A stretch of DNA of 21,983 bases, taken from contig JARRQT010000016.1 of the NCBI GenBank assembly GCA_037381445.1, forward strand, positions 1-21,983, in the 5' to 3' direction. Positions 991 through 19,021 of this stretch are shown here, piece by piece. Origin of the DNA: Calditrichia bacterium (GTDB lineage Bacteria > Calditrichota > Calditrichia > RBG-13-44-9). The notes under the pieces were generated by a model. It made no database searches. It was not told the DNA's origin and saw only the letters and a program-made list of their open reading frames with translations. Numbering within the stretch: the first letter of the stretch is position 1; the number at the start of each line of letters is the position of its first letter. The position numbers were made by a program, and so were the translations under genes.

Positions 991-2040
991 CTAAAACATT
1001 TCCATTTCAGCCGGTTCCGTTTTGGTGACCAGGCTGATGTTGTGCTTTTTCAGGCGGTATTTGAATTTTTCGCGGCTGATCCGCAGCAGCCGCGCCGCCT
1101 TGGCCTTGTTCCCCTTGGTCATCTCCAGCGCCTTCATGATGGCGGCTTTTTCCAGGTCCTCCAGCGAAATGCCCTGGGGAGGGATATTGATTTCAATATT
1201 GTCATTCTGCTTTATCTTGAGCGGAAAGTTGTCAACGATATGGCCTTCCCCCAGCTTGAGATCCTGTGCGCCGATGATCTCGCCGGAACTCAATAAAACC
1301 GCCCGTTCGATTGAATTCTTGAGCTCGCGGACATTGCCCGGCCAGGGGTAACTGAGCAGCATGTCCTTGGCATCGGGCGACAGACCGATAATCTTCCGTT
1401 CGTGTTCAGCGGCCAGTTGGTACATAAAATATTCAGCAAGCACCAGAATATCCAGATTTCTCTCCCGCAGGGGAGGCACCCGGATGGTAATGACGTTGAG
1501 ACGATAGTAGAGGTCTTCGCGGAACAGACCCTGCTGCACCAGTTTGAACAGCTCGCGGTTGGTGGCGGCGATAATCCGCATCTTGACATTGATATTCTTC
1601 ACCCCGCCCACCCGGCGAAAAACCTTCTCATCCAGCACTTTAAGAAGTTTGGCCTGCAGACTGAAATTCAGATCACCGATTTCATCCAGGAAAAAAGTGC
1701 CGCCGTCCGCCAGCTCCAGCAGGCCTTTCTTGGATTTTTTGGCGTCGGTGAAGGCGCCGGCCTCGTATCCGAAAAGTTCGGTTTCCAGAAGTGTTTCCGG
1801 CAGGGCGGTGCAGTTTATTTCCACGAAGGGTTTGGCGGATTGCTGGCTGGCATTGTGTATGGCGCGGGCGATCAATTCTTTACCGGTTCCGCTTTCGCCC
1901 AGAATTAAAACCGTGGAGGTGGAGCTGGCAGCAACTTTGTTAATTTCCTCAAATAGCTGCTTCATTTTAAAACTGTGTCCGAGTAAGTTGTTATAATTGA
2001 TAACAGAATCGTCGGATGATGTGTAAAGACTGAATGGCAC
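991..2040 (-). CDS. Sigma54-dependent transcriptional activator (bEBP; AAA+ plus Fis-type HTH) without N-terminal sensory domain
   Basis: Walker A GESGTGKE, GAFTDA loop, Walker B FFLDEIG, FREDLYYRL, WPGNVRELKN and C-terminal HTH GNKAKAARLLRISR. GTG start with AGGT upstream. An in-frame TGA at 2062-2064 rules out an N-terminal extension. Confidence 0.93.
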   Translation of the reverse strand: MPFSLYTSSDDSVINYNNLLGHSFKMKQLFEEINKVAASSTSTVLILGESGTGKELIARAIHNASQQSAKPFVEINCTALPETLLETELFGYEAGAFTDAKKSKKGLLELADGGTFFLDEIGDLNFSLQAKLLKVLDEKVFRRVGGVKNINVKMRIIAATNRELFKLVQQGLFREDLYYRLNVITIRVPPLRERNLDILVLAEYFMYQLAAEHERKIIGLSPDAKDMLLSYPWPGNVRELKNSIERAVLLSSGEIIGAQDLKLGEGHIVDNFPLKIKQNDNIEINIPPQGISLEDLEKAAIMKALEMTKGNKAKAARLLRISREKFKYRLKKHNISLVTKTEPAEMEMF

Positions 2041-2247: not shown

Positions 2248-3087
2248 TCACTTTATAAAAACGGTCAGGCAGTCCCTGTTTCCGTCTTCCTGCGGAAGGG
2301 GAGCGAATGATTCCTCACTGCGGAAAAGAGATGCGCCCAGCCGGGAGAGGAGCTCCTCTGATGACGCATGTGAAGAGGATATCCCAATTTGATCCTCCTC
2401 CGAATAGGCGTTATACAGCGCCGCAATCTCTTTTAAATACGAGGAAGCGCCGGGCAGCAGACCCGTTCCGTCGCCGGAGAACAGTTCCGTATTGGCGATC
2501 CTGATCCGGATGCCGCTAGTATCGGCAAAAAAGACCGCGGGCAGGGAGAATGTCTGTCCGGGAAAGGTCCGCTTGTTACCCGCCTTGTCTATCGCGGTAA
2601 AACTGTATGAATAAACATGACCCGGCACCAGCAGCGATCCGTCATTTCCTTTGCCGTCCCACGGAATGGATTCCGGCGGATTTTTTTCGCCGCTGATGGT
2701 CCGGAACAGCGCTCCGTCGCTTCGGAAAATATCCAGTTGCCAGGTATTGAGGTCTTTGAAATGCGCCTGAAAGACGCGGGCTGGCTGGGGATGAATATTG
2801 GCGGCATGGGAGTCGGAAATCCGGAAAGGAAAGGACTGCCAGTTTCCGCTGTTCTGAGAACCGTCCGCCGCCGGCTGAATGGCTGCCCAGGAAATTTTTT
2901 CAGGAATTTGGATCAGGTCTGAAAAATCGGTATTCATAACGATCGGCAGCTTCTCTTCCTGCAGTTCGGCCTTGTAGGTTTCTTTCACCACCACTTCATC
3001 CAGGGCCTTTGAACTGTCGGCGGCCTGCTGGGAAATACCGCTGACAGCAAGCGAAAATAATGCGAATAGTACTAACCATGATTTCAT
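2248..3087 (-). CDS. Exported protein with central FlgD_Ig-like domain and possible degenerate OmpA-C-like tail
   Basis: Start reassigned to ATG 3087 (GAGGA RBS; signal peptide MKSWLVLFALFSLAVSGIS). Contains WQLDIFRSDG..FRTISG...PESIPWDGKGNDGSLLVPGHVYSYSFTAIDKAGN, a FlgD_Ig-like pattern. Confidence 0.7.
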   Translation of the reverse strand: MKSWLVLFALFSLAVSGISQQAADSSKALDEVVVKETYKAELQEEKLPIVMNTDFSDLIQIPEKISWAAIQPAADGSQNSGNWQSFPFRISDSHAANIHPQPARVFQAHFKDLNTWQLDIFRSDGALFRTISGEKNPPESIPWDGKGNDGSLLVPGHVYSYSFTAIDKAGNKRTFPGQTFSLPAVFFADTSGIRIRIANTELFSGDGTGLLPGASSYLKEIAALYNAYSEEDQIGISSSHASSEELLSRLGASLFRSEESFAPLPQEDGNRDCLTVFIK

Positions 3088-3109
3088 TTTGGGTTCCTCG
3101 AATAATCTG

Positions 3110-4153
3110 TCAAATAACAAATTGGAAAGTGATAACGCCGGTCTGGTCATGCCGCAAACCGTTTTGTTGCAGGGCGGCGAACTGCCATTCCTTCAATGCT
3201 TTGACCACTAACTGATCCCAGTCCCGTGACCCGCTGGTCCTCTCGATCAAAACATTTTCCCGCACACTGCCGTCTTCCATCACTGTAAAGCGCAGCGAAA
3301 TGGATGCGCCCACACCTTGTCTTTTTGCCCAGGCAGGGAAGGGGGGTACAATTTTCCGGACAATCTGCCGGTTTGCCAGCGGTCCGGTGATGAAGGTCTG
3401 GGTTTGCTTCTTCTTTAGATCTTTTTGATTGAGCGGGAGTTTTTGCGGAACTGTTTCGATGTTGATGCCGCCTGTCCCCGCAGAAACCGGCCGCTGTTCG
3501 GATTTCCCGCTCAACTGAATTTTGGGACCTTTGGACATCGCAAAAGCCATGGCCTGCTGCGGAGAAGAATTGGAGGCAAGCAGGACATCTTTATTAACAT
3601 CCAGGCTGATGGGCGCGGGTCTGGCAATTTTATCATTGTTTTGAATACCCTTCGCCGAAGAAACATTGATGATGTTACCGGGCTTCGCCACATTCTCTGC
3701 TACCTGTTCAACCTTCTCCAGATGGATGGGCGCCTGTTTCCGGGGCATATCCAGAAATATGCGGTCAGTTCCGGCAAAGCGGGGAGCGGCGGTCTGTGCA
3801 GCCTGCTCCGCGGGCGCTTCCTTCTGTTCGGATTCCGTGAAAATGGTCTGGCTTTCGTTCTGCGCGTGCCTGGGTTGCTTTGGCGGCTCTTTCACCGCGA
3901 TCTCTTCGTTGAGGTCGATGAAATTGATTTCACGGATGGGCGGTGAATCCGGCACGTCCAGATCGGCCAATCCCCAATAGCCAACCAGGAACAGAACATG
4001 CAGCAGAATGGAAATGGTGACGCCGCCGGAAAGCCTGTTTCTCTCCTTTCGGACAAATGACATCCATTTCTGGTAGAGCTTGGAGTTCCGTTTTTCCATG
4101 AATGGGTCCGCCAGGGGATATTTTAACAGGGCATTTATATTTAGATTTTTCAT
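3110..4153 (-). CDS. tonB: TonB-family energy transducer
   Basis: Start reassigned to ATG 4153 (after the ExbD stop, AAAGGGA RBS). Single TM with S-x3-H motif (SILLH, 3998-4012). C-terminal TonB_C domain PPFPAWAKRQGVGASISLRFTVMEDGSV...SGSRDWDQLVVKALKEWQF. Confidence 0.88.
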   Translation of the reverse strand: MKNLNINALLKYPLADPFMEKRNSKLYQKWMSFVRKERNRLSGGVTISILLHVLFLVGYWGLADLDVPDSPPIREINFIDLNEEIAVKEPPKQPRHAQNESQTIFTESEQKEAPAEQAAQTAAPRFAGTDRIFLDMPRKQAPIHLEKVEQVAENVAKPGNIINVSSAKGIQNNDKIARPAPISLDVNKDVLLASNSSPQQAMAFAMSKGPKIQLSGKSEQRPVSAGTGGINIETVPQKLPLNQKDLKKKQTQTFITGPLANRQIVRKIVPPFPAWAKRQGVGASISLRFTVMEDGSVRENVLIERTSGSRDWDQLVVKALKEWQFAALQQNGLRHDQTGVITFQFVI

Positions 4154-4166
4154 AAAAAATATCCCT

Positions 4167-4571
4167 TTAAACTTGATTTCGGTTTCGCTGCATTGTTGCG
4201 ATGGCGATGTGCGTCGCCCCCGCTTTTTTCGCAAGAATAAGCAGATCCAGAATATGTTTGTGGGTCACATTCTTATCCGCCCGGATCACCACCAGCCGGT
4301 CCGGGTGTTCTTCCAGCTTCTGCTTCAGTCCGGCCTCCAGCTCATCCAGGGTGGTGAATTCATTCTCGTTCAGCGCGACTTTTCCGTCCAGAGAATAGGT
4401 TATGGTGATATTGGATTCCGATTTTGCTTCCACCGTTTTGGCTTTCGGCAGATTGATGTCCATATCAACCGGCGTCATCATGAGGGGTGAAGTGACCATA
4501 AACACGATGACCAGTATGAGAGCAACGCCTACCAGCGGCGTGATATCGATTTTGCTAATTGGGCCGTCCAT
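4167..4571 (-). CDS. exbD: ExbD/TolR-family biopolymer transport protein (TM Asp replaced by Gly)
   Basis: IDITPLVGVALILVIVFMV TM, INLPKA, VVIRADKNV..KHILDLL..AKKAGA; adjacent to exbB and tonB. Confidence 0.9.
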   Translation of the reverse strand: MDGPISKIDITPLVGVALILVIVFMVTSPLMMTPVDMDINLPKAKTVEAKSESNITITYSLDGKVALNENEFTTLDELEAGLKQKLEEHPDRLVVIRADKNVTHKHILDLLILAKKAGATHIAIATMQRNRNQV

Positions 4572-5001
4572 GATTACCTCCCGGCGTTTGCTTTTGTTTG
4601 ACGATTGAAAGCTGCTGCGCGCCGCTCTGCTTGGCGATATCGAGGACCGCCACTACTTTGTCGTGCAGCACATTCTCATCCGCGCTGATTAACACCAGCT
4701 TGTCCCTGCTGGCATCCATGATGGATTTCAGCGAATCGGCGAGCAGGGCAGATTCAATCGTTTGTCCATTCAATATGATTTCATTGTCGTTCTTCAGGGT
4801 GATCTCGGCCTTCAGTTCGGTTTCATCCATCACCGACTGCGCTTTTTTCAGCGAGGGCGTCGAGACTTTGATTCCCGATTGCATCACCAGCGGATAGGAT
4901 ACCATGAAGATGATAACCAGGGTGAGGCATACGTCCACCAGCGAGGTTAGGTTGATCTCCGTTACCCCCTGCTTGATTTTTATTTTTTCATTCATTTTCA
5001 T
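4555..5001 (-). CDS. exbD: ExbD/TolR-family biopolymer transport protein
   Basis: EINLTSLVDVCLTLVIIFMV TM with the conserved Asp, LISADENVLHDKVVAVLDIAKQSGA, and GGAG RBS. Its 3' end overlaps the next exbD by 17 nt. Confidence 0.92.
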   Translation of the reverse strand: MKMNEKIKIKQGVTEINLTSLVDVCLTLVIIFMVSYPLVMQSGIKVSTPSLKKAQSVMDETELKAEITLKNDNEIILNGQTIESALLADSLKSIMDASRDKLVLISADENVLHDKVVAVLDIAKQSGAQQLSIVKQKQTPGGNHGRPN

Positions 5002-5031
5002 CCGTGAAACTCTCCAGGTTTAATTTCATTT

Positions 5032-5652
5032 TCAGGCACTGGCGGGAATGCCCAGCATCACCAGTACTTTTTTACTCACGGATTCGATTTCCAGCATCAT
5101 ATTGTTGACCCGGCGCAGGAAGTAGTTGTAGAAAATCACGGCGGGCACGGCGACCACCAGACCGCCGGCGGTGGTGACCAGCGCTTCGGCGATACCGGCG
5201 GAGATCACCGACGGCCCTGCGGAACCCGAAACCGCCAGGGAGTGGAAGGCCTGGATAATTCCCACCACCGTCCCGAAGAGGCCGATGAGCGGGGCAATGT
5301 TGCCGAGCGTTCCCAGAATATTCAGATTTTTTTCCAGCTTGGTGCGCTGGTCCATGGCAATGGCGTCCATCATATCCACCACGGCAGCGGGATTTTTGGC
5401 ATTTTCTTCCAGCCCGCTTTTGATGACGGCGGCCAGAGGGGAGAGGGAATTGTTGCAGACTGAAATGGCGGCCTCGATGCCGTCCTGCCGGAATGCGCTT
5501 TTCAGATTCATGAAGAATCTTTCCGAATCCACGGCGGTGTGCTTCAGATAGAGCCATCTCTCAAAAATGAAAGTCAGCGCGATGACAGAACATCCCAGCA
5601 GAATTATCATGGTAATACTGGATCTCAGGGTTTCAATCACATTCACATCCAT
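5032..5652 (-). CDS. exbB: MotA/TolQ/ExbB proton-channel family protein
   Basis: Three TM segments; LGTLGNIAPLIGLFGTVVGIIQAF and ISAGIAEALVTTAGGLVVAVPAVIFYN signature; AGGAG RBS. Confidence 0.95.
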   Translation of the reverse strand: MDVNVIETLRSSITMIILLGCSVIALTFIFERWLYLKHTAVDSERFFMNLKSAFRQDGIEAAISVCNNSLSPLAAVIKSGLEENAKNPAAVVDMMDAIAMDQRTKLEKNLNILGTLGNIAPLIGLFGTVVGIIQAFHSLAVSGSAGPSVISAGIAEALVTTAGGLVVAVPAVIFYNYFLRRVNNMMLEIESVSKKVLVMLGIPASA

Positions 5653-5692
5653 TGAATCATCTCCTAATTTTATAAATCACCTGTTTAAGTTT

Positions 5693-8600
5693 TTATTTAT
5701 GTGCACCGCCGGAAAGCGAAACGGACAATGCCTGAATCCGCTCCCGGGCTGCGTTAATCCATTGTTCTTCGGTAGCGCTGTTTGCCAGCAGTTCGTAAGT
5801 GTTCAGGGCTTTCTGTGCCTCGCCGCTGTTTTCGTAAATCGCCGCCAGCTGCGCAATGGAGCTCAGCCGGTAATAATCCGAGGGTTCCCCGATATTGGAG
5901 GCCTTGGTAAAAACAGCTTTTGCCTCTTTTGTCTGATTTTCATTCAGGTAAAGCATGCCCAAATGGTAGGCGGCCTCCGAGGCAACCGCGGCATCGGAAG
6001 ATTTGGACAATTCCGAAAACAGGCTGCGGGCGTCCGCAGGCTGGTTCAGGTCCGTGTAAATCCTGGCGACCTGCAGGGTGACTTTTTGTCTGTCCTGCCC
6101 CTGCGGATTTTCTGCGAGATATTTTTTGAAATATTCCAGCGCTTTCTCTTTGTCCTTCAGCTTATCGTAGCACCAGCCTGCATTCTGGATGGAGGAAGCG
6201 TAAAATTCCGAATCGGTATTGTTTTCGATGACATTGTTAAAACAATCAATGGCGGAGAGATAGCTCTCCGTGCTGAAATAGCAGATGCCCAGCAGGAACC
6301 TGGCTTCGGCCAACTGCCCGCTTTCCGGGAAATAGCGGATGAACTGGTTAAATTCCCGAGCGGCATCCTGATATTTGTTCTGCGCCAGAAATGATTTTGC
6401 CAGCGAGAACTGGGCGTCCGGCGCGTAGGAGGAGTTGGGATAGAGCGTCAGAATCTCTTTAAATTCCCTGACGGCATCTTCGAATTTTTCCTCCGTCAGG
6501 TAGTTGGTGGCCATCCGGTAACGTGCATCCACCGCCAGATCGGTGTTGGCGGATTGCTCGATCACCTTTTGCAGGGTCTCAGCTGCCTGCTCGCTCTGCC
6601 CCAGTTGATAATAGCAGTACTGAATTCCTTCCAGGGCGGTCTTGCTTTTTTCATGGGTGGGATAATTGTCAATAAATTTTTGGTAACGCTGAATGGCCGT
6701 TTCATAGCTGCCGGCGTTGTAAGCGGACTGGGCCAGTCCTAACTGACTCTCCACGGCATAATTGCTTCCGGCGTAATCCTGAATGATTTTGGAATACATG
6801 GAATCGGCTTCCGCAAAATAATTGGCCCGGAAGTATATGTCTGCGGCATGATACAGCGCGGCGGGAGCAAGCTTTGAAGCGGGAAACTCATCCGCCAGTT
6901 TCTCCCAGTATTGAATTGCCTGTCCGTAGGATTCCAGCCGGTAATAGCATTCCGCTGTATGGTCCAGCGATTTCTCTACGATCCGCGTATATTCCGGGCG
7001 GGCATGATAATCCAGGTTTAGCGGGAATTCCTTCAGTGCGTTCTGGTAGTCCCCCTGGTGGAAAAGCGCGGTGGCGTAGCCGTACTCGGCCAGCGGCCGG
7101 TTTGCCGGATCCAGGCTTTTCTTCAGCTGCTTGAACAGGATGGCGGCCGTATCCACGCTGTTTGTATAAAATGTGCACCAGGCCAGTCCCACAGACGCTT
7201 TTTCTGTGAGATCATCGGATGTTTGGGATTGCGCCAGCCGGTAGTTTTCGGCGGCCTCGCCGTAGTGTTTCAGGAAATATGCGGATTCGGCAATCAGGAG
7301 GTGGTTGGCGCGCTGCCAGAAATTCAGCGACCCGGCATCATTGCTGTTTTTCAAATAGCTGTAACGGTTGATGACGTCCTGATACTTCCCTTTCTGATAA
7401 TCCTCATTCTGCAATGCGAAAAAAGCGGCATCCTGAATATCGCCGGTCACAGTTGAGTTGAGCACCTCATCGAAATATTTTTTCCCGGCAGCTTCATTCT
7501 CATGAATAGCGACCATGAAATTGATGGCAGGTGCCATATCATTCCTGGGATAGATGGAAAGGAACTGTTTCAGACTGATGAGGGCACTGGCGGTGTCGCC
7601 TTTTTCGAATTCCGTCATGGCCGCCTTCACCTTGGCGAGGGGGGCGATGGGGGAGTTCATATTCAGGGAAGCGATATTCCGGAAAATCCGGATGGCATCC
7701 TGATATTTCTCGGGATTCTGGCGGCCCATCTGCCGGTAGCATTCCGCCTGCATATACTGAAAATAGCTTTTATTTGAGGCATCAGCGGCAATATTGAATT
7801 CCGCCAGCGCATTCTCCGCTTGACCAATATTGAGGTACGCCCATCCCAGCCGGAAATGTACGGCATCCGTATACCGGCTGTTGGGGAAATACTGCATGAA
7901 TCTTTTCAGCTCGGACTGGGCGGCCAGCCAGTCGCTGGCGCGCATAAAAACCTCCGAAGCATGCAGCATGGCTTCCTCGGCGATCGGCGTGCCGGGAAAC
8001 TGATCGTTCAATTTCTTGTAGATGCTTACAGCCAGAATCCGGTTGTCCGCCATCTCATATGCCCTGGCCAGCAGGGACAATCCCGCGGGATCTTTGGAAT
8101 CCTTCAGCAGCCGGATAGCTTCACCGGAGTTATGCCCGGCCAGCGCCAGGCGGGCCCTGATGAACTGCACGCGGCTCTCATTCTCATAAAGGGGATTGGC
8201 GCTTTGCAGCTCTTCCAGCAAGCCGCGGCAGGTTTCCCACTTCTCTTCATTTGCCGCCTGCCAGGAGAGCGCGAGGGTGGCTTCCCTTCTGATATATTCC
8301 CGCCCGCTTCCTTCGTGCAGGAACCGGAAAATCTGTAGCGCTTCCGCGGTTTTGTTTTCCCTGAGGAAAAGAATACCTTCCCGCAGCGCGGCCTCTTCCC
8401 GCAGCGATTTCGGCAGTTCCAGTTTAGTGGATTGGACATCGCGCAGAATGCTGCGGGCATCCTCAAACTTGTTTTCCCTGGTGAGGACGTCTGCCTGCAG
8501 GAAACAAATCCTGGCAAACAGCACGGGATCCCCGGTTTCCTTTTTCGCGGCATTGCATTCGTAGATGATATTATCCACGGACTCGCCCCGGGTGTAGCTG

Positions 8601-8725
8601 CCTGCCGCAGCGGCATAATGGCTCCAGGCGGCGTCTTCGTCCGCGAATGCCAATCCGGCTGCCAGCAGCGCAATTCCCGAGGCGGTTAATAATACATTCC
8701 GGAAATTTTTTATTAATGTTTTCAT
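5693..8725 (-). CDS. Large exported tetratricopeptide-repeat protein (~1010 aa)
   Basis: Start reassigned to ATG 8725 (GGGGA RBS; signal peptide ending ALLAAGLAFA). Many TPR units of the type A...Y..l...yP.S..a.dA.f.lg..y (e.g. FPNSRYTDAVHFRLGWAY, YPNSSYAPDAQFSLAKSF, FPESGQLAEARFLLGICY). Confidence 0.9.
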   Translation of the reverse strand: MKTLIKNFRNVLLTASGIALLAAGLAFADEDAAWSHYAAAAGSYTRGESVDNIIYECNAAKKETGDPVLFARICFLQADVLTRENKFEDARSILRDVQSTKLELPKSLREEAALREGILFLRENKTAEALQIFRFLHEGSGREYIRREATLALSWQAANEEKWETCRGLLEELQSANPLYENESRVQFIRARLALAGHNSGEAIRLLKDSKDPAGLSLLARAYEMADNRILAVSIYKKLNDQFPGTPIAEEAMLHASEVFMRASDWLAAQSELKRFMQYFPNSRYTDAVHFRLGWAYLNIGQAENALAEFNIAADASNKSYFQYMQAECYRQMGRQNPEKYQDAIRIFRNIASLNMNSPIAPLAKVKAAMTEFEKGDTASALISLKQFLSIYPRNDMAPAINFMVAIHENEAAGKKYFDEVLNSTVTGDIQDAAFFALQNEDYQKGKYQDVINRYSYLKNSNDAGSLNFWQRANHLLIAESAYFLKHYGEAAENYRLAQSQTSDDLTEKASVGLAWCTFYTNSVDTAAILFKQLKKSLDPANRPLAEYGYATALFHQGDYQNALKEFPLNLDYHARPEYTRIVEKSLDHTAECYYRLESYGQAIQYWEKLADEFPASKLAPAALYHAADIYFRANYFAEADSMYSKIIQDYAGSNYAVESQLGLAQSAYNAGSYETAIQRYQKFIDNYPTHEKSKTALEGIQYCYYQLGQSEQAAETLQKVIEQSANTDLAVDARYRMATNYLTEEKFEDAVREFKEILTLYPNSSYAPDAQFSLAKSFLAQNKYQDAAREFNQFIRYFPESGQLAEARFLLGICYFSTESYLSAIDCFNNVIENNTDSEFYASSIQNAGWCYDKLKDKEKALEYFKKYLAENPQGQDRQKVTLQVARIYTDLNQPADARSLFSELSKSSDAAVASEAAYHLGMLYLNENQTKEAKAVFTKASNIGEPSDYYRLSSIAQLAAIYENSGEAQKALNTYELLANSATEEQWINAARERIQALSVSLSGGAHK

Positions 8726-8744
8726 ACTGATATTCCCCGCTCTC

Positions 8745-9995
8745 TCAATTTTCACTATTCATTCCCAGTGTGCCGGACGGTCCCTGGGTATCGATGGAAA
8801 CCAGAGAACCGGCTGATTCATAGCTTTGTCCTTCGCTGGTCACGACCAGGAAATGGTAGGTGAATTTGCCGTCCGGAACCAGGGTGCCGTTATCATCGCG
8901 GCCGTCCCAGACAATCTGTTCGGGGAGCTCGCCGACCTGGGTGAAATTGCGCACCACATTCTTCTGCCGGTCCAGGATTTCAAACGTCCAGCGGCTGACT
9001 TCCCCGCGGCTTCTCACCTTGAGCTTTATTTTGGAAATGTTCTGTTCGCCGGTGGGGGAAAACACATCCGGAGAGGCATCGGCTCCCACACCGAATCCGC
9101 TGAAGGCGTAATTCACGGCAATCAGATGATTCATGCCCAGATCGGGCACGCTCTGGTTGCTGTAATCCAGGCCGATCTTGTCGAATGATATCCCGATACC
9201 CATAGCAAACTGGTCCGAGTTTAAACCGGTGCGCAAAGCAAGATTGGGCAGGGCCTGGTATTCGGCCCCGATATTGAAGCGGGTTTTATCCCATCCCGAG
9301 ATTTTGGAAATGTCGGCGCTTACCACCAGTTTGTTTTGCAGGAAGCTGGTGGCGACCCCGGCCCGAAACTGCATGGGGAATTTTTCCGATTGACTGGCCA
9401 GCGTCACCGTCGGCGAAATCAGGTTGGTGAGGGCAATACCGGCATCCACCCGCTCGAACAGGCGCTTCTTCAGGCCGATGTCCGCGCCGTGACCTATACC
9501 GGAATAACCCAGCATTTTTTCGGTGACCAGTTTATAATTGATGCCGAAAGCGATGTCCGCGAACAGTTCTTTAGACCACGAGAGCAGGAAGGCCATATTG
9601 GTCAGGCTGAAACTCCCCAGCGCTTCATTCAGCTCATTCCGCTGGTCAAAATCGCCGGAGGTGAGGGCCAGGACGCCCAGGCCGAAATTGCCGTAGCGGC
9701 GGGTGGGGGCAGTAGCCGCGATGTAATCGAAGCTGGTGCTCATGAACAGCCGGGAATGCATGAAGTAGATCTGGTAGGGGTCCTGGTTTGCCAATCCTGC
9801 CGGATTCCAATAAATTGCGGTTCCGTCCTTGGCCAAGGCCGTGAAGGCATTTCCCATCGCCATGGCCCTGGCGCCCACACCCATCTGCAGGTAGGTACCC
9901 GGCATGCCTGCCACTCCATCCTGGGAAAACAGAGGGCTGTTTCCCCACACTGCCAAAGAGAGAACCGTGCATAAGATTATCAGTTGTTTTTTCAT
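8745..9995 (-). CDS. PorV/PorQ (UPF0164)-family outer-membrane beta-barrel with C-terminal FlgD_Ig-like domain
   Basis: Start reassigned to ATG 9995 (GGAG RBS, signal peptide). N-terminal family motif YLQMGVGARAMAMGNAFTALAKDGTAIYWNPAGL, amphipathic strands through HLIAVNYAF, then VFSP..WTFEILD..VVRNF..IVWDGRDDNGTLVPDGKFTY. Confidence 0.85.
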   Translation of the reverse strand: MKKQLIILCTVLSLAVWGNSPLFSQDGVAGMPGTYLQMGVGARAMAMGNAFTALAKDGTAIYWNPAGLANQDPYQIYFMHSRLFMSTSFDYIAATAPTRRYGNFGLGVLALTSGDFDQRNELNEALGSFSLTNMAFLLSWSKELFADIAFGINYKLVTEKMLGYSGIGHGADIGLKKRLFERVDAGIALTNLISPTVTLASQSEKFPMQFRAGVATSFLQNKLVVSADISKISGWDKTRFNIGAEYQALPNLALRTGLNSDQFAMGIGISFDKIGLDYSNQSVPDLGMNHLIAVNYAFSGFGVGADASPDVFSPTGEQNISKIKLKVRSRGEVSRWTFEILDRQKNVVRNFTQVGELPEQIVWDGRDDNGTLVPDGKFTYHFLVVTSEGQSYESAGSLVSIDTQGPSGTLGMNSEN

Positions 9996-10054
9996 TTTAT
10001 TTTCTCCAAACATTTCAATTCCGTTTGTTTTTCTTTCTGACATTTTGAATCATC

Positions 10055-13000
10055 CTATCGCATAACTGCTATCTTACGTTTGGCATCCATTACTGATTTA
10101 CCGTTAGCGGTTGCTCTGGCAATGAGAATATATCCGCCGTTCCCGACTCTCTGACCGCGGTCGTTGACGCCCGCCCAGGCTATTGAATTGGGATGATTGC
10201 TGCTGTTCCGTCCCCTGCCGCCCGGTTGGCCGGCCGCAATATTTTTGGTCCACACCAGGTTTCCGAAGAGATCAAATATCTGCAGGGTGACGTCCGCATC
10301 CTCGGGCAAGTAGTACTCAATGTGCGTCACATCCGATTCCAGTCCGAAGGGATTGGGATAATTGATCGGCTTCCCATCCGCCAGGGTGGAAGGGGTCAGG
10401 TTGACCAGTATTTCGAAATCAGTGTAAACCGAATCCACACTTGCCCGGACCACATTGGTTTCGGATACCTTGCCTGCTACAAACACCACGGAGGCGATTC
10501 CCTTTTCATCGGAAAGGGTGGCGTTCTGTTTCAGCTGGCCCGTTCCCGAAAGCAGTTCAAATTTGACTTCCTGGTTTGTGACAGGATTTCCGCTTCCGTC
10601 CAGCAGCTGGGTAGACAGGGTCACTTCTTCCTTTCCGCGCAGTTCTGTTTTCGGGGCGCTGAATTCGATGCCCGAGACGCTTCCGGCAAAGATTTCAATC
10701 GGATCGGAATAGGCCGGTGCTGTTTCCGTTTCATCCACCACTTTGATTCGGATGGTTCCCACGGAATTGTAAACCTGCTGGATGGTCCGCTGGCCGCCCT
10801 GGAGGTTGAAGGAGGCATTTTCCACTGCTCCCACTTCCTTTGTGATATCCTGGGCATCCACCGCGCTGAGATGGACCACCTGGCTGGCGCCGGGTATCGT
10901 TTCGCCGATGCCGTTTTTGTAGAAGACCTTCATTTCGAAGGGTTCTCCGGCGGCAACCCGGTTGGCGCTGAGCTGAAGTTCATAATGGAGGCCGCCCACC
11001 AGCACGTCCACCAGCCCATCCAGCGAAGTGCGGATCTGGCTGTTGGTCTCGTCAATGGCGCGGATGATCTGGTTGCCGCCCTGCTTCAGGGTGACTGAAA
11101 AAGTGCTCTTCCCGCCGACCAGCTGCGGCTGTGAATTCTCAACGGCAGCGGCGTTGTCGGTGGTGAACAGCCGGATATGGTCCGAAGGCACCGATGTCAG
11201 CAGGTTCCAATAATCATCTACTGCATAAACATTCACGGGGAAGGGCAGGCCGGAAGTCTGCTTCAGCGGCGTGTCTTTTCTGCCGGGTGTTTTCAGAGGA
11301 TCATTTTCAGTGTCACCGGGCAGCGGCGCCTCACCGGGCAGCAGTACCAGCAATTGGCTGAATTGATTCGGCTGGATGGAAAAACTGTCGCTCACTGCTT
11401 CTGCAAAGTCCTGCTGCTGTGAGAATTTAGCGCGAATGGTGTGCTTGCCGGCCGCCCGCAGCGTGACTGGTATCTGCAGTTCGCCATTCTCAAGCGCCAG
11501 TTGGCTGGAAACGGCGGCGAAGGAATCGCTCACCGATAGGGTAAGGGAATCAGATTGCGACCGGATCAGGTTGTAATAGGCATCCACGGCACGGACCAGC
11601 ACATTCACATTGTTGCCGGCAATATGACTGGTGGCATCACCCTTTTTCCCGGGAGCGACGCCGGGGGTTGCACTTTGGCCGGGAAGAACGATTTGCAGTC
11701 CCGCGAGCTTGTCCGGTATCACCGAAAAGGCGTTGCTGTAGCCTGTATGGGTATTGGGCGCGGGCACATAATCCGCTGCATAGAGCACTACGTTGGAATC
11801 CGCCCGGGTGACTGCCAGCTGGCCCTGCCAGACTCCATTTGCCATGGTGACGCCGGTCTGTGAAAGGGTGCCGTTTCCGGTGGAGGCGGAGAGAATGATG
11901 TCGCCTTCGTAATCGGTGACGGGATAGTCATTCTGGTTCTGGGCTTCTATTTTAACCGTGAACGGGCTTCCTGCCACGCGATTGCTGTCGATGGCCGAAA
12001 TCGCATAGTGATGATGATCGCAGGATTGCACAAAGACAGAGGTCGAGCTATCTATAATCACTCCGTGCTCAATATCCTGCACGATCAGAGTATTTTTGCC
12101 TGGTGTCAGAAAAGTGAGCGGGAATGAGGTCAGATCGGCTGCCAGCAGGGTATCGGAGGGCAGAACGGCCAGCAGGTCGGTTGAAGAAAAATGAACGCTC
12201 AGGCTCTCCGGCTTGACGGCGTTCCACCAGGCATCCGTGACGCGGAGGCTGGTCTGAAAAGGAATTCCGCTGATCTGCGCATAGGGATTTCCGGTTTTTC
12301 CTGGGGCAAGTCCGGGAGTAGCGGTTTCGCCCGGCATCAGGATCTGCAGCCGTTTCAGCTCGCCGGAAACCAGTGTGAAGGGATTGCTGTTTCCGCGGAC
12401 CACATCCGCGAAATCGTGAATATTCAGATGGGCGCTCTGCACGGCCTTGGTGACCACAACCGGTCCGCTCCATGCGCCATCGGCAAATTTTACCTGTTCC
12501 GCGAAGATGGTTCCGGGACCGGTAGAAGAAGTGAGGCTGGCCGTTTCGCTGTAGTTCTTCACCGTTTCGCCGTTTCCGTCCACCGCACGGATAGTCACCT
12601 GAATGGTGTCACCGGCAGTCTGGGGGCTCTTGATGGGATCGAATGCGAAACTGGCCACCGAACCGCTGATGACGTGAATGAGCGGTGAGGTGTCGGAGGA
12701 TATCTGCAGATCGGTTTTATACTGGGCGGTCAGCGTCCAGTAACCCGGTGTATTCAGTCGGACATCGCTGAAAGTAATGGTCCCGGCCTGCATGGCGGCA
12801 TCCAGCGGCAGTGTGGCATTCTGGTCAGTGGAAGTGATGCCAACCAGTCCGTCTGCCGATACGATCGGGTTCCACCACGCATCCACCGCATTCACCGTAA
12901 CAATGACAGCGTCTCCGGAGACCTGGGTTTCCACTTCGCCGGTTTTTCCGGGAGCAACACCGGGGGTTGCGGTTTCGCCGGGCAGAAGGATTTGCATGCG

Positions 13001-16000
13001 GGTGAATGTCCCGGCACTTATTTTGAAAAGATTGCTCTGGCCGCTGTGGGGCGTCGATGCATAATCCATGCAGGTCAGTTGCGCATTTTCCATGGCGCGG
13101 GTGATAGTGATTTTTCCTGTCCATACACCGTCCACAAAATCGATTTCGGTGGGGGAAAGGGTTGCCTGTCCGGTGGAGGTCTGCAGTCTCGCATGACCAT
13201 TATAACCCGCCACAGGATTTCCGGCCACATCGGAGGCCGTAATCCGGATCGAGAATCCGTTTCCTGCGGTTTGATCGGCGATGGCATCAAATTCGAAATG
13301 ATCAAGATTGCCCGGATTCACATTGAAGGCGCTGCTCACTGCCGCCAGCTTTTCGGGATCCGTAATATCCTCGGCGGTCAGGGTATGGGTTCCGGCGGTG
13401 CCCATCATAACCGTGGGCCGGGCCGAACCGTTGATTAATTTGCTCTTTGCGGTAAGCGTAGCGTTTTCATCGGAGGATAACAGCCTGATGCTGTCCGATA
13501 CCGAACTCACCAGGTTCCAGTAATTGTCCACCGCCAGCACCCGCGCTTCAAACTGATCGCCGGTGAGCTGGTCCAGGGGCTGTCCGGATTTTCCGGGGGC
13601 GACGCCCGCCTGCAATTCCTCGCCGGGAAGCAGGATGTGCAGCTTCTTAAACGAACCGGCCAGCACCGTGAATGCATTGCTGGTGCCAGTATGAACGGGC
13701 GTTCCGTTATCGCTGACCGAAACGGTTACTTCCGTGGCCGCCCTGGTCAACCGGATTTCGCCGGTCCATTCGCCGTTCTCGAAAGGTCCGACCTCGGCGG
13801 GTGTCACAGTGCCTTCATCGGTTGAGGCACTGATCGATAAAATGCCGCTAAAGCCGAACAGCTTCTGGTCCTCGGTCCCGCGGGCTTCAATGGTCACGGA
13901 AACGGGCTCTCCGGCGGTTGCCGGACCGGTTATTGTCTTAAATGTGAAATGGTCCAGATCCTGCGGCAGTATGGTAATTTCAGGCGTTTGCCCATTGTGG
14001 ATAGCGGGATTGTTCAGATGAAAAGCGGAGACAGTATGATTGCCCGCTCCGTTCAGCGTGATGCTCAGGCTTCGGGTGCCCTTTGCCAGAACGGTCGGTT
14101 CCGGCAGCGAGGCGTAGAGATCGGTGGACGAAACACCGAAAGAGTCCGAGGAAGTGGTGACCACATTCCAGTACTGGTCAACACCATTCACCACCATCGG
14201 GAAGGGCTCTCCGGCATTCTGCACCTGCGGTGTTCCGCTGTATCCCGGGGCAATGCCAGGGGTGGGAATCAGTCCCGGAACAATTACCTGGAATGCCGCC
14301 AGCGGCCCGGGTTTAACTTCGAAATCGTTACTTTGCCCGGTGTGAGCCGGCGTTGCCCCGTCGGAGGCAGAGAGGTATACGCCGCCGGATGCTTTTTTCA
14401 TGGTAATATTTCCGGTCCACGAACCATTGCTGAAATTGGCGGTCACGGGGATCAGGGTGTTGTCGCCGGTGCTGGCGCTGAGCAGTACCATGCCGGTGTA
14501 ATTGGATACCGGATTGCCCTGCGGATCCACCGCGGTTATGGTTACTGAAAAAGGAATACCTGCCTGCTGCGGTCCATTGATGGGATTGAACACAAAGCGG
14601 TCCAGATTCCCGGGATTGACACGAATCTGACTGCTGGTCCCTTTCAGAACCGAAGGATTTGTCTGGTTGGTGGCGGAAATGGTCTGCAGGCCGGTGTTGT
14701 TCAGAGCCACCAGAAACTGGCGCGTGCCATTATTCAATGAGATGTCCTGCGGCAGGGAAGCGGACGGATCGGTGCTGCTCAGGTGAACCACATCCACATT
14801 ATTGGGGATTACATTCCACCATTCGTCCACCACATTTACCCGGGTATAGAAATTCGTTCCGGCCAGCACTTCACCGGCATATCCTGTTTTGCCAGGGGCA
14901 ACTCCCGGGGTAGCAGCTTCGCCGGGCAGCAACACCTGCATTTTGTGGGCGGGACCCGGTACAACATTGAACTGATTGCTTACCCCGCTTTGCGGGGGAT
15001 TTGTACGGTCCTGCACATTAACAGTGACCAGCGAGGCTGCTTTGGTGAGGGTGATTTCTCCTGACCACCAGCCGTTGGTCATGGTTATCTCGCTGGGAGA
15101 AATGGTGGCCAGACCAGTGCTGGCGGACAGATCCAGTGTAGCATTGAAATTGCTGATCAGGTTCCCCTGGGCATCTACGGCAGTAATGATGGAGGAAAAT
15201 GCTGATCCGGCAGTCTGAGGTGATGAGATTGAACTTATAGTGAAATGGTCCAATTTGCTTGAAAAAACCTCAATTGGGGAACTGACGCCATTTAAAATGG
15301 AGGAATTGTTCACATCCCGCGCGGTAATGGTCTGGCTGCCCTGCGTGTTCAGCTTTACCAGCATGGAAACCGCGCCATTGCTCATGGATTGACTGGAGGG
15401 CAGCGTCGCCGCCGCATCACTGGAAGACAATGAGATGGTATGCGCAACATTTGTTTTCAGATTGAAGAATTCATCCGTGGCAAAAACATCGACAAAAAAA
15501 TCTTTTCCGGCCTGCTGGGAGTTGGGAGAACCGCTTTTTCCGGTAAGGCTTCCCGGCAGATGATTTTCGCCCGGAACGACGGTCAGCAGCCTCTTGAAAT
15601 CTCCGGGCAGGGCGCAGAAGCGGTTGCTTTCCCCCTGAATGCCGCCGTCAAAGGCCCGGACCCATACGTCGCCGGTTACTCCCCATCCACGGGTTTTCTT
15701 GCCTGCGCGGTAAATCCATACGCTTCCTTTCCACTTACCGGCTTCCAGCCTGATCCTTTGGGGAGAAATCCGGCCGATGCCGTAATCGGTTTGCTCGGAT
15801 AAATCGACATACTGGTTATAGTCATATACCCGATTTCCGTTATTGTCACGGGCGATAATCTCCACCTGCTTGATTTCTTCGCCCACGGTCACCTGTCCCG
15901 GCATGACCCACCAGGGGTCCCCGATTTCACTGATCGTGAAGTAGCCTAATTCCACCACGTTCAATGCCGGAGAAGTCACACTCTGTACCGCGGAATTGCT

Positions 16001-16396
16001 GTCATCATGAATACTGATAGCCTGATTTCCGGTGGAATTTAAGGTGATGCTGAGCCTGGCAGTGCCGTCTACCACATTGACCGGCAGCGGCAGCGAGGCG
16101 TAGGGATCACTGGATGAAACGGAAATCTGGTCGGAAGAGGGAACCACATTCCAGTTCTCATCCACCACATTGACAATGATCTCGAATGGTATGCCTTTGG
16201 TCTGTCCCTCGGGCTCGCCGGTATATCCGGTTGCGGTTCCGGGAGCAGCGGTCATGCCCGGCAGCAGGATTTGCAGCTTTTTTGCAACCTGTGCATCGGC
16301 ATTCGAGAACACTGCCAGTATTAATATGACAAGTAATCCGGTGGAATACCGGAAGATGTTCGAAGGAAAAGAGGACTGCCTCCCTGGGGTTTTCAT
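10055..16396 (-). CDS. 2113-aa secreted Ig-like repeat surface protein with Big_1-like domain and T9SS-type/FlgD_Ig-like C-terminal domain
   Basis: GGAGG RBS (16404-16408); signal peptide ending NADA; ~216-aa tandem units. Big_1-like segment LLDGSGNPVTNQEVKF...SDEKGIAS. C-terminus NYPNPF...IEYYLPEDADVTLQIFDLFGNLV...WAGVNDRGQRVGNGGYIL...KIAVMR. Confidence 0.9.
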   Translation of the reverse strand: MKTPGRQSSFPSNIFRYSTGLLVILILAVFSNADAQVAKKLQILLPGMTAAPGTATGYTGEPEGQTKGIPFEIIVNVVDENWNVVPSSDQISVSSSDPYASLPLPVNVVDGTARLSITLNSTGNQAISIHDDSNSAVQSVTSPALNVVELGYFTISEIGDPWWVMPGQVTVGEEIKQVEIIARDNNGNRVYDYNQYVDLSEQTDYGIGRISPQRIRLEAGKWKGSVWIYRAGKKTRGWGVTGDVWVRAFDGGIQGESNRFCALPGDFKRLLTVVPGENHLPGSLTGKSGSPNSQQAGKDFFVDVFATDEFFNLKTNVAHTISLSSSDAAATLPSSQSMSNGAVSMLVKLNTQGSQTITARDVNNSSILNGVSSPIEVFSSKLDHFTISSISSPQTAGSAFSSIITAVDAQGNLISNFNATLDLSASTGLATISPSEITMTNGWWSGEITLTKAASLVTVNVQDRTNPPQSGVSNQFNVVPGPAHKMQVLLPGEAATPGVAPGKTGYAGEVLAGTNFYTRVNVVDEWWNVIPNNVDVVHLSSTDPSASLPQDISLNNGTRQFLVALNNTGLQTISATNQTNPSVLKGTSSQIRVNPGNLDRFVFNPINGPQQAGIPFSVTITAVDPQGNPVSNYTGMVLLSASTGDNTLIPVTANFSNGSWTGNITMKKASGGVYLSASDGATPAHTGQSNDFEVKPGPLAAFQVIVPGLIPTPGIAPGYSGTPQVQNAGEPFPMVVNGVDQYWNVVTTSSDSFGVSSTDLYASLPEPTVLAKGTRSLSITLNGAGNHTVSAFHLNNPAIHNGQTPEITILPQDLDHFTFKTITGPATAGEPVSVTIEARGTEDQKLFGFSGILSISASTDEGTVTPAEVGPFENGEWTGEIRLTRAATEVTVSVSDNGTPVHTGTSNAFTVLAGSFKKLHILLPGEELQAGVAPGKSGQPLDQLTGDQFEARVLAVDNYWNLVSSVSDSIRLLSSDENATLTAKSKLINGSARPTVMMGTAGTHTLTAEDITDPEKLAAVSSAFNVNPGNLDHFEFDAIADQTAGNGFSIRITASDVAGNPVAGYNGHARLQTSTGQATLSPTEIDFVDGVWTGKITITRAMENAQLTCMDYASTPHSGQSNLFKISAGTFTRMQILLPGETATPGVAPGKTGEVETQVSGDAVIVTVNAVDAWWNPIVSADGLVGITSTDQNATLPLDAAMQAGTITFSDVRLNTPGYWTLTAQYKTDLQISSDTSPLIHVISGSVASFAFDPIKSPQTAGDTIQVTIRAVDGNGETVKNYSETASLTSSTGPGTIFAEQVKFADGAWSGPVVVTKAVQSAHLNIHDFADVVRGNSNPFTLVSGELKRLQILMPGETATPGLAPGKTGNPYAQISGIPFQTSLRVTDAWWNAVKPESLSVHFSSTDLLAVLPSDTLLAADLTSFPLTFLTPGKNTLIVQDIEHGVIIDSSTSVFVQSCDHHHYAISAIDSNRVAGSPFTVKIEAQNQNDYPVTDYEGDIILSASTGNGTLSQTGVTMANGVWQGQLAVTRADSNVVLYAADYVPAPNTHTGYSNAFSVIPDKLAGLQIVLPGQSATPGVAPGKKGDATSHIAGNNVNVLVRAVDAYYNLIRSQSDSLTLSVSDSFAAVSSQLALENGELQIPVTLRAAGKHTIRAKFSQQQDFAEAVSDSFSIQPNQFSQLLVLLPGEAPLPGDTENDPLKTPGRKDTPLKQTSGLPFPVNVYAVDDYWNLLTSVPSDHIRLFTTDNAAAVENSQPQLVGGKSTFSVTLKQGGNQIIRAIDETNSQIRTSLDGLVDVLVGGLHYELQLSANRVAAGEPFEMKVFYKNGIGETIPGASQVVHLSAVDAQDITKEVGAVENASFNLQGGQRTIQQVYNSVGTIRIKVVDETETAPAYSDPIEIFAGSVSGIEFSAPKTELRGKEEVTLSTQLLDGSGNPVTNQEVKFELLSGTGQLKQNATLSDEKGIASVVFVAGKVSETNVVRASVDSVYTDFEILVNLTPSTLADGKPINYPNPFGLESDVTHIEYYLPEDADVTLQIFDLFGNLVWTKNIAAGQPGGRGRNSSNHPNSIAWAGVNDRGQRVGNGGYILIARATANGKSVMDAKRKIAVMR
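11040..16285 (-). repeat. Degenerate intragenic tandem repeat: (A-B)x7 then A-A Ig-like modules, ~650-nt period
   Basis: The A-module motif LQILLPGE.A.PG.APGK.G recurs near 16270, 15580, 14935, 14285, 13635, 12990, 12340, 11690 and 11345. The B-module motif LDHF....I..PQ.AG...LSASTG...G.W.G...G.SN.F.V lies between them. Confidence 0.85.
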
Positions 16397-16428
16397 AAAT
16401 ATACCTCCATATATTTGAATATGATCAA

Positions 16429-16884
16429 TTAATTTGCCCGGTTTTTGGAATCTGTCTGTAATTTTTCATGGGATTCCGAATGCTCGGTATTATGTTCCTT
16501 TTCCAGTTTCTCCAGCAGAAAATTCAAATTGTCACCGATTTCATGCAGATAATCGGTACCGCGCATGTGGATTCTGTGCCGGTAATTCCCGGTAATTGCC
16601 TGCTGTAATGCCCGTTGGATTTGAATCAGGGGGCCGGCAATGCGATGGGACAAACGGGCGCCCATCCAGAAATTGAAAGCGCTGATAACGAGGATCGCCA
16701 AAAAAAGGATTGAGAACTTCCAGTATACCCGCAGATCGACCGGAAACTGGTAGGAGCTTTTTTCCACCCAGTAGAGAATGACACCGAAGAAAAGAATTTC
16801 CGCGGCGGTCAAAAAGGTATATAGCAAGGTGAATGCATGTTGTAAATTGGGTCGAATATAGTAGAATCGGCGCATATGACACAT
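16429..16884 (-). CDS. Small two-TM membrane protein with HAMP-like C-terminal domain and no output domain
   Basis: Two hydrophobic segments, then SHRIAGPLIQIQRALQQAITGNYRHRIHMRGTDYLHEIGDNLNFLLE (HAMP-like P...G.l...i.....DE...l...N). The start may be ATG 16875, which has better RBS spacing. Confidence 0.75.
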   Translation of the reverse strand: MCHMRRFYYIRPNLQHAFTLLYTFLTAAEILFFGVILYWVEKSSYQFPVDLRVYWKFSILFLAILVISAFNFWMGARLSHRIAGPLIQIQRALQQAITGNYRHRIHMRGTDYLHEIGDNLNFLLEKLEKEHNTEHSESHEKLQTDSKNRAN

Positions 16885-16913
16885 CCCTGTTTTTCTTTCC
16901 TACTGCCAATAGG

Positions 16914-16928
16914 GCAAATGGGGTGCCA
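16914..16928 (-). promoter_or_regulatory. Sigma54 (RpoN) -24/-12 promoter
   Basis: The minus strand reads TGGCAC-CCCAT-TTGC (GG-N10-GC), correctly oriented ~30 nt upstream of the first operon gene. A sigma54 activator gene flanks the operon. Confidence 0.8.
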
Positions 16929-16970
16929 CCTTTTCAGAATTTTCCTAATTTCAAAAATTACATCTTATTG

Positions 16971-16986
16971 AGTGATGTGGATCACA
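16971..16986. promoter_or_regulatory. CRP/FNR-family-like binding site
   Basis: AGTGA-TGTGGA-TCACA, one mismatch to TGTGA-N6-TCACA; GATCACAT matches the extended CRP consensus. Confidence 0.45.
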
Positions 16987-17063
16987 TCCCGGACTGTTGG
17001 CGGTTTTAGAAGTGTGGTTCATATGAAACAAAAATGGAAAAAAAGGTGGTTTATTTGCCCCAG

Positions 17064-17081
17064 CCGGTTCATTTGAACCGG
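17064..17081. promoter_or_regulatory. Perfect inverted repeat, candidate upstream activator sequence
   Basis: CCGGTTCA-TT-TGAACCGG, ~135-155 bp upstream of the sigma54 -24 element. Confidence 0.35.
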
Positions 17082-17369
17082 TTATTATTTTCCGTTTCCG
17101 AAAAAAATAATCTCGGAGCATTATTCCGGCACAGTAATCCGGCAGGGATATTCTGTAATATTTTTTTACACTCACTGACTTTGAATACTTGTGCCGGCAC
17201 ATTTTGTAATAATATGTCGGGAAGTCGGAGGGGTTGTATTAATTTAAGTTGAAATATTGTGAGATAGGAGGGTTCTGCGCCAGGTTCTATGGAGAGATTC
17301 TTTTCTGCAAATAGAAGTTCTTTTTTATGTCGCCTGTTTTCAAACAGGCTGATGGAATTGGCAGAGGGA

Positions 17370-18557: not shown

Positions 18558-19021
18558 TAAGATTCCTTCCCTTCGTTTGGAGGTAATTCAACTATTTCAA
18601 ACCAATATCTTCCCAAAGACTTTATGACTTCGACCAGCGACTCAAATGTCACAGGCTTGGTAATATAACTGTTGGCACCCAGATCATAAGACTTTATAAT
18701 ATCCCCCTCTTCTTTGGAGGTGGTCAATACGACCAGAGGAATTCTCCGCAACTCGGGATCTGATTTTATCTCAATCAATGCTTCGCGCCCGTCTTTTCGG
18801 GGCATGTTCAGGTCCAGCAGAATCAGTCCCGGTTTGGGGGCATTGCGCGGATTACTGTATTTATTTCGGTGCTTGAGAAAATCCAATAGCTCCTCGCCGT
18901 CTCCAACAATATAAAGATCGTTCAGGAGGCGGCTGCTTTTCAAGGCTTCTTTTACCAGCAGACAATCGTCCTGGTCATCCTCGGCCATCAGAATCGATAC
19001 GGATTTTGCATTAGGCGTCAT
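18557..19021 (-). CDS. Single-domain response regulator (Rcp1-like receiver)
   Basis: ILMAEDDQDD, LILLDLNMPRKDGRE, IPLVVLTTS, SYDLGANSYITKP, YWF tail. Confidence 0.94.
   Translation of the reverse strand: MTPNAKSVSILMAEDDQDDCLLVKEALKSSRLLNDLYIVGDGEELLDFLKHRNKYSNPRNAPKPGLILLDLNMPRKDGREALIEIKSDPELRRIPLVVLTTSKEEGDIIKSYDLGANSYITKPVTFESLVEVIKSLGRYWFEIVELPPNEGKES

Follow-up and report, generated by a model that had tools for sequence, protein, structure and literature searches.

A nine-gene Calditrichia operon that may couple a Ton-type motor to one PorV-family carrier and its giant filament cargo

The stretch of DNA analysed here (the window, 21,983 nucleotides [nt]) is the whole of contig C16 (JARRQT010000016.1) of a Calditrichia bacterium, whose genome (G000; assembly GCA_037381445.1) measures 5.1 Mb and is 91.85% complete. 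In the list of open reading frames (ORFs) of the window, nine ORFs within 2248-16884, all on the minus strand, form an operon. Its motor, transducer, box-bearing adaptor, scaffold, tailed carrier and cargo each have a counterpart in known envelope machines, and for this reason we interpret the operon as a private Ton-type energy chain, whose pull on a single carrier-cargo complex would serve extraction first and placement or tension afterwards; judged from sequence, this reading has about an even chance of being right. By the tests made, the operon appears to be neither a canonical type IX secretion system (T9SS), nor a Ton-receptor locus, nor Tol-Pal, nor an Agl-Glt core, with parts and logic borrowed from each. 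It is a variant of the Ton/Tol/Agl machines, which join a 5:2 motor to a TonB transducer, and apparently a new one; no published description was found in the literature searched, which mostly excluded subscription journals.

An earlier note on this DNA, made from the letters alone, had described nine co-directional genes, and these are present, no gap exceeding about 60 nt. Using the likely starts, the gaps from first to last gene are 32, ~60, 19, 40, 30, -17, 13 and 22 nt, the one between cargo and barrel being ~60 nt with the likely barrel start at 9995 and 11 nt from the first ATG. Gene families were assigned by Pfam and NCBIfam profile matches with their cut-offs, and follow the order weak HAMP, cargo, PorV_fam barrel, TPR, ExbB, ExbD, ExbD, TonB_C and a last gene with a weak FlgD_ig match.

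16429..16884, minus strand: inner-membrane protein of 148-151 amino acids (aa) with two transmembrane helices, HAMP-like, no output domain (PF00672, 17.7 bits)
10055..16396, minus strand: secreted filament of 2113 aa with signal peptide, 17 alternating A/B immunoglobulin (Ig)-like repeats, Big_1 and a PorU-like C-terminal sorting domain (CTD)
8745..10043, minus strand: PorV/PorQ-family outer-membrane barrel with a fused C-terminal FlgD-type Ig domain; likely start 9995
5693..8725, minus strand: TPR scaffold of 1010 aa, YbgF/BamD repeat type; start ATG at 8725
5032..5652, minus strand: ExbB/TolQ-family subunit with three transmembrane helices (PF01618, 123 bits)
4555..5001, minus strand: ExbD1, transmembrane Asp kept (PF02472)
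4167..4571, minus strand: ExbD2, transmembrane Asp replaced by Gly (homolog alignment)
3110..4153, minus strand: TonB-like transducer with a 44-aa cytoplasmic N-terminus, a transmembrane helix with SxxxH, a long linker and a TonB C-terminal domain
2248..3087, minus strand: periplasmic adaptor candidate of 279 aa with signal peptide, TonB-box-like strand, FlgD/CTD-type Ig domain and a degenerate OmpA-C-like domain

The families on the earlier note's parts list hold; what it overlooked are the ExbD without Asp, the TonB-box-like strand, the OmpA-C remnant and the Ig tail of the barrel. It had also reported no TonB-dependent receptor, SprA or GldKLMN gene in the window, and none of these has a match among the ORFs scanned.

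An ortholog of the Asp-less ExbD occurs in 12 of 86 Calditrichota genomes, from three families (8 of the 53 high-quality ones), and the locus was read in all 11 genomes other than our own. Seven keep the full nine-gene order, three meet a contig edge with the order intact as far as the contig goes, and one has four genes. There are blemishes in the full loci, where the TPR gene of G074 is cut by a gap of Ns and the cargo of G083 is in two pieces; in G073, TonB and the last gene lie in a single frame. A metagenome scan gave 27 loci, and all 22 with an Asp-less ExbD show the same neighbours to the contig limit, some of the 22 being duplicates of the genome loci. Loci L066-L070 were dropped from the synteny count as unrelated (27-31% identity, a single ExbD with Asp). 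One ExbD2 homolog comes from candidate division KSB1. The neighbourhood survey that the earlier note had proposed thus finds the gene order conserved in other genomes, so chance clustering is rejected; no plug-bearing receptor was found in any locus read. The four-gene copy (L073; G082, C1, 521788-526392) is a TPR-ExbB-ExbD-ExbD remnant with open frames and no partner genes, and a search of that genome found no orthologs of the barrel, TonB or the last gene.

Of the motor proteins, ExbB, ExbD1 and TonB retain their channel residues, and the Asp of ExbD2 is gone. ExbB has its channel Thr in 15/15 and its Glu in 26/26 pattern-matched ORFs, and we take both residues to play their usual functional roles; ExbD1 has its Asp in 29/29. 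In ExbD2, among the 120 of 185 homologs listed, the Asp position is occupied by Gly in 118 (115 by pattern, three by eye) and by Ala in two, and in none by Asp. The simplest reading of these residues is a heterodimeric ExbD1-ExbD2 axle with a single proton site, presumably within a 5:1:1 motor. In E. coli, the substitutions D25N in ExbD and H20A in TonB abolish activity (PMC11658791), and a 2022 review leaves open whether AglQ and AglS form a heterodimer (PMC9389320). An ExbB tree of 13 rows, in which descent from AglRQS was compared, has no support on any deep branch. Such a conserved pair, in which just one ExbD has the proton-carrying Asp, lends itself to testing the model of 5:2 rotary motors in which two Asp residues alternate.

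The transducer matches PF03544 (35.4 bits, cut-off 24.6) and solved TonB C-domains (E-value 2e-6), and SxxxH is kept in 27/27 orthologs among the matches listed. Behind it, the last gene probably starts at 3087; its product has a signal peptide, after which comes a short hydrophobic strand that resembles a TonB box. The box-like pattern is found in 66 of 74 homologs, compared with 99 of 2698 ORFs taken as background; of the eight homologs without it, four have close variants and two are from a distant subfamily. That subfamily (446 matches) aligns end to end with the adaptor family (HHalign 99.92%, 278 columns) and has a conserved strand of its own in register, which is present in 105 of 120 members (120 of 446 listed); its members include, among the matches listed, Krumholzibacteriota, Zixibacteria and Eisenbacteria.

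In the AlphaFold2 model of the adaptor, residues 1-76 have a predicted local distance difference test score below 50 and are followed by an Ig domain and then an alpha/beta domain. The fold matches are middling (Z 5-7), the Ig domain resembling FlgD and the PorU CTD, and the alpha/beta domain TagL, MotB, MotS and OmpA. The family profile spans the Ig into the OmpA domain of multi-Ig-OmpA proteins, and the barrel Ig tail together with the Ig-OmpA part of the adaptor resembles a fused Ig-repeat-OmpA protein split in two. The TPR protein passes TIGR02795 (199 bits, cut-off 90.1) and TIGR03302 (181.6 bits, cut-off 81.4), scores below the cut-off of the PorW/SprE model (124.6 bits, cut-off 250), and is predicted to be periplasmic, having a signal peptide and no lipobox by eye.

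The cargo filament has Big_1 and C-terminal FlgD_ig matches in Pfam/NCBIfam. The T9SS-type CTD that the earlier note had assigned to it stands in part: the best solved-structure match of the tail is the PorU CTD (6ZA2), both by profile (E-value 0.082) and by fold (Foldseek E-value 1.1e-4, TM-score 0.61), and the tail falls below the T9SS type A models (TIGR04183, 20.3 bits, cut-off 23; PF18962, 16.6 bits, cut-off 27). The terminal domain opens with YPNPF, invariant in 12/12 orthologs. PorU is a useful comparison here, its CTD being reported to remain uncleaved on PorV (PMC10202324). The cargo of locus L063 is shorter, with 1140 aa and eight repeats. In L022 (4126-4620), L023 and L024, about 158 additional residues without a Pfam match follow the second cargo repeat, a candidate variable tip domain, and elsewhere in the genome (G000, C145, 1-7164) a protein of more than 2300 aa shares the A/B Ig repeats.

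The barrel does belong to the PorV family, with 124 bits against NF033709 (PorV_fam, cut-off 90), and is under the cut-offs of the PorV, PorQ and PorV2 models proper; its tail matches PF13860 (FlgD_ig) at 30.3 bits (cut-off 27). Run against solved structures, the barrel profile matched no solved barrel and FlgD weakly. The Ig tail is aligned and conserved in 13/13 orthologs, and from its place after the last barrel strand it is predicted to be periplasmic. Pairs of cargo and PorV-family barrel are ordinary in this genome, where 138 matches to TIGR04183 and 24 over-cut-off PorV_fam barrels were counted. Among the 27 barrel loci that were examined, an upstream same-strand ORF is present in 23, and 17 of those 23 ORFs end in a PNP-type tail. 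A length above 400 aa is found in just 3 of the 27 barrels, the Ig tail being thus rare among them, and it is this tail and the coupling to a motor that are unusual in the operon. Cognate shuttles lie directly downstream of their cargo genes and also determine where the cargo ends up, as described in PMC12618676.

The genome (G000) as a whole shows a large expansion of cargo-carrier pairs, with at least 24 PorV-family barrels, mostly behind a divergent PNP-tail gene and often near plug-domain receptors. At one of these loci (L040; G000, C128, 3-4979), the gene behind a cargo with a window-like tail encodes a PorV-family barrel of 637 aa to which TPR repeats are fused.

The earlier note had proposed that one look in the full genome for SprA and PorV in the absence of PorL and PorM, and this is the pattern obtained: SprA is encoded at full length on C78 (TIGR04189 over cut-off), unlinked to the operon, PorU on C219, and PorV paralogs as above, while GldL and GldM have no match in the genome, nor were GldK and GldN found, all without a positive control. 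Across the phylum, SprA (TIGR04189) is present in 85 of 86 genomes, 82 of them over cut-off. Searched without a positive control, GldM_1st and GldL_N (PF12081, PF22827) exceed their cut-offs in 0/86, with one weak match below cut-off each, and GldK and GldN (PF19841, TIGR03525) in 0/21. Melioribacter and Ignavibacterium are described as having SprA, PorV and Plug without other T9SS proteins (PMC11705866).

Those same counts, SprA in 85/86 and GldM_1st and GldL_N over cut-off in 0/86, are what would favour the idea that the operon stands in for GldLM in T9SS export generally, throughout the phylum, and the earlier note had raised such motor substitution. The module is present in just 12 of the 86 genomes, which largely refutes the idea; we grant it next to no probability and reject it. 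The operon does not account for secretion in the 74 genomes that lack it, which sharpens the question of what energises the T9SS across Calditrichota.

The genome encodes 32 plug domains and seven TonB_C matches, and has no Plug match on C16. Separate motor loci are a Ton system on C74, Tol-Pal on C77 (by eye), an Agl-core-like locus on C325 and a locus with TPR and a plug-less barrel on C1, so the plug receptors have other motors available; an ordinary receptor-serving Ton system as the sole role of the operon is rejected. The C1 locus (L038; G000, C1, 70813-77422) consists of TPR, a 585-aa barrel, ExbB, ExbD and TonB, and the C-domain of this TonB is the closest paralog of that in the window. 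The C1 barrel has no Pfam match (no plug) and a conserved box-like N-terminal strand; strong matches occur in 15 of 16 same-family genomes, with full-length ones mainly in two families. The TPR ORF of the C1 locus is frameshifted near its end, and a paralogy between the TPR proteins of C1 and the window is poorly supported, the 22% identity in two registers being what generic repeats give. On C325 (L039; G000, C325, 131-3383) are genes for a small secreted protein, ExbB, two TolR-like proteins, in one of which the Asp position reads as Asn by eye, and a protein of GltG/AgmX type (NF033768, 94.7 bits, cut-off 40).

How might the parts work together? In the energy chain that we propose, the ExbB-ExbD1-ExbD2 proton motor would drive TonB, and TonB would pull on the soluble box-bearing adaptor, which probably connects to the barrel by the latter's periplasmic tail. 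The giant Ig filament would cross the outer membrane through the SprA of the genome, and its PorU-like CTD would stay uncleaved on the adjacent barrel, as suggested by the PorU-PorV, PorZ-PorQ and type B pairs. The TonB C-domain may bind the disordered N-terminal strand of the adaptor in the manner of receptor boxes and of the GltG-GltF model, in which the GltF strand is placed on the TonB domain of GltG (PMC11761067). The Ig/OmpA-like body of the adaptor and the 1010-aa TPR protein could then transmit the pull to the barrel Ig tail, drawing the loaded carrier off SprA and afterwards positioning or tensioning the displayed filament. We infer every contact in this chain. There is a precedent for such a step in Flavobacterium, where release of the carrier-substrate complex from SprA is reported as the energy-requiring step of the T9SS, powered by GldLM (PMC10994853). 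The module does look dedicated to one carrier-cargo pair, as the earlier note had supposed.

The known T9SS pairs (PorU-PorV, PorZ-PorQ, type B CTD-PorP/SprF and PorE-PorP-PG1035) share with the operon a barrel gene directly behind a CTD cargo gene, the PorU-like CTD, and the linkage to TPR and OmpA-like parts that PorE also shows (PMC10202324, PMC12618676). The operon departs from them in the Ig tail fused to its barrel, in the Ton-type motor and box-bearing adaptor encoded along with that barrel, and in that GldKLMN was not found; unlike in PorE, the TPR and OmpA-like parts are separate proteins, with no lipobox by eye.

Expression of the operon may depend on sigma54, for which two further features should be considered.

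16914..16928, minus strand: sigma54-type -24/-12 promoter motif, ~30 nt before the first gene
991..2040, minus strand: receiver-less sigma54 activator, 207 nt downstream of the operon

The motif has two matches in the window versus 0.30 expected, and 2 of 100 shuffles reach two; the end coordinate given in the earlier note, 16928, falls on it. A same-strand motif lies upstream of the first gene in 6 of the 7 other full loci, three of them strict and ~30-40 nt from the first gene and three looser at ~200 nt, the pattern having been loosened to TTGY post hoc, once the sequences had been inspected. The motif is seen, and control by sigma54 would follow from it. An ortholog of the activator, 64-76% identical, is found behind the operon in G074, G065, G063 and L062 and is absent behind the remaining loci read; it is probably a regulator, accessory to the machine. 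The HAMP-like gene, with two predicted transmembrane helices and a PF00672 score below the cut-off of 25, leads the operon in 7/7 other full genome loci, and none was seen upstream of the cargo gene in L063. Short inverted repeats, noticed by eye upstream of the promoter (16930-17200) and between operon and activator, could be activator binding sites.

Several observations count against a private energy chain and should be kept in mind. The cargo tail misses TIGR04183, its Ig fold also occurs in proteins outside the T9SS and in the adaptor, and unrelated Ig domains come shortly after the PorU CTD among its matches. The box pattern was drawn from the same alignment in which it was counted, so conservation is shown and not function, and TonB boxes are described as being under little sequence constraint (PMC11658791). 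The operon TonB could also serve the 32 plug-domain receptors, and 23 other over-cut-off PorV-family barrels of the genome have no linked motor. The module is missing from 74 of 86 genomes, nearly all of them with SprA, and G082, a single contig, keeps just TPR-ExbB-ExbD-ExbD between unrelated genes. Since no control genome was matched, very divergent GldL/M copies may still exist. As most genomes and carriers manage without the module, extraction from SprA does not depend on it, and the pull must have some further role. In favour of the chain, the operon brings its own box-like strand and has no plugged receptor at the locus.

With this in mind, the alternatives can be weighed against the same parts. 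The barrel might be a FadL-like importer, a split TonB-dependent transporter in which TonB, by way of the soluble box adaptor, opens the hatch, with the filament serving as a surface capture arm. Import is the usual job of TonB, the barrel also matches the FadL-type Toluene_X and UPF0164, and the C1 locus pairs a plug-less barrel having a box-like N-terminus with TPR, ExbB, ExbD and TonB. The ExbB-ExbD-ExbD-TonB set of the operon is that of Ton systems, which differ in having a 22-stranded plugged receptor, missing at this locus, where a separate soluble protein carries the box-like strand. The barrel, however, scores as PorV_fam and sits behind a CTD-bearing gene like 17 of the 23 paralogs with an upstream gene. 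Moreover, neither the Pfam scan nor repeat analysis found a catalytic or binding domain in the filament, and no inner-membrane transporter or catabolic gene is conserved beside the genome and metagenome loci. We regard import as unlikely. Ton-powered export has a precedent in Myxococcus, where PopC is secreted in an Oar-dependent manner by TonB1-ExbB1-ExbD1-ExbD2 (PMC11658791). A Tol-Pal-like tether is a quite improbable alternative, in which the motor would position or release a wall-anchored barrel-filament complex, not to secrete it but to stabilise the envelope or place the complex at a pole, with TonB as TolA, the adaptor as TolB box plus Pal, and TPR as CpoB. PorE-PorP-cargo complexes have been proposed to be wall-anchored (PMC12618676). 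The operon shares with TolQ-TolR-TolA-TolB-Pal-CpoB its motor and transducer, a TPR that passes the YbgF model, and the OmpA-C-like fold in which the adaptor ends; the transducer would also pull a soluble periplasmic protein by an N-terminal box, as happens with TolB. Yet neither a TolB propeller nor a Pal lipoprotein was found among the nine proteins, there are two distinct ExbD, and a barrel and giant cargo are added. The OmpA-like domain of the adaptor has no Pfam OmpA match and no peptidoglycan-binding motifs visible by eye; the module is patchy (12/86), and a full Tol-Pal locus is already present on C77.

A surface-contact sensor would run the chain in reverse: a load on the filament would travel via barrel, TPR, adaptor and TonB as far as the asymmetric motor and the HAMP-like protein, and the latter would control the sigma54 activator. 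The output-less HAMP-like protein is first in 8/8 full genome loci including the window, the receiver-less activator stands behind five loci including the window, a sigma54 motif lies upstream, and ExbD2 has no Asp. Nevertheless, the activator is missing behind most loci read, the HAMP gene was not seen in L063, and ExbB, ExbD1 and TonB retain the residues of an active motor; we consider the sensor very unlikely. A gliding machine of the Agl-Glt type, moving the filament along the cell, had been entertained in the earlier note and is one that we hold to be most unlikely. The parallel with AglRQS, GltC/D/E/G and GltF comprises one TolQ-like and two TolR-like subunits, a TonB-like protein, a TPR scaffold (PMC3169522, PMC9389320), a small periplasmic protein with a TonB-box-like strand comparable to GltF (PMC11761067), a barrel and an adhesin-like protein. 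The operon TonB is nonetheless not of the GltG/AgmX type (NF033768, 22 bits, cut-off 40), and Pfam/NCBIfam and transmembrane prediction found neither an FHA domain nor a long cytoplasmic part, the latter being 44 residues. In addition, the outer-membrane part is a PorV-family barrel with CTD cargo, one ExbD is without Asp, no cytoplasmic platform genes are at the locus, and a true core-like locus is elsewhere in the genome (C325); the core complex alone is thought insufficient for motility (PMC3169522).

Returning to the private energy chain, its fullest form is one that we hold tentatively, with somewhat less than even confidence: the rotor, ExbB5-ExbD-ExbD*, would be asymmetric, with one proton site, and would pull on a PorV-family carrier through a free-standing box adaptor, so as to take the giant filament off SprA and work it at the surface. 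It would be the first proton-motive-force motor tied to T9SS carriers outside GldLM, in several uncultured phyla that have the translocon without GldKLMN. In this operon, a different proton-motive-force motor is genetically linked to a T9SS carrier, a concrete case whose parts list is short and testable, and a free-standing TonB-box adaptor, if true, would widen the range of TonB targets.

Outside the operon, the window encodes on the same strand, upstream (17472-21983), a PAS histidine kinase, a single receiver and a receiver-kinase hybrid, which were not seen adjoining other operon copies. On the plus strand, 25-941 holds a small ORF without assignment and a NUDIX hydrolase; a similar NUDIX gene occurs in L025, at the opposite side of the operon.

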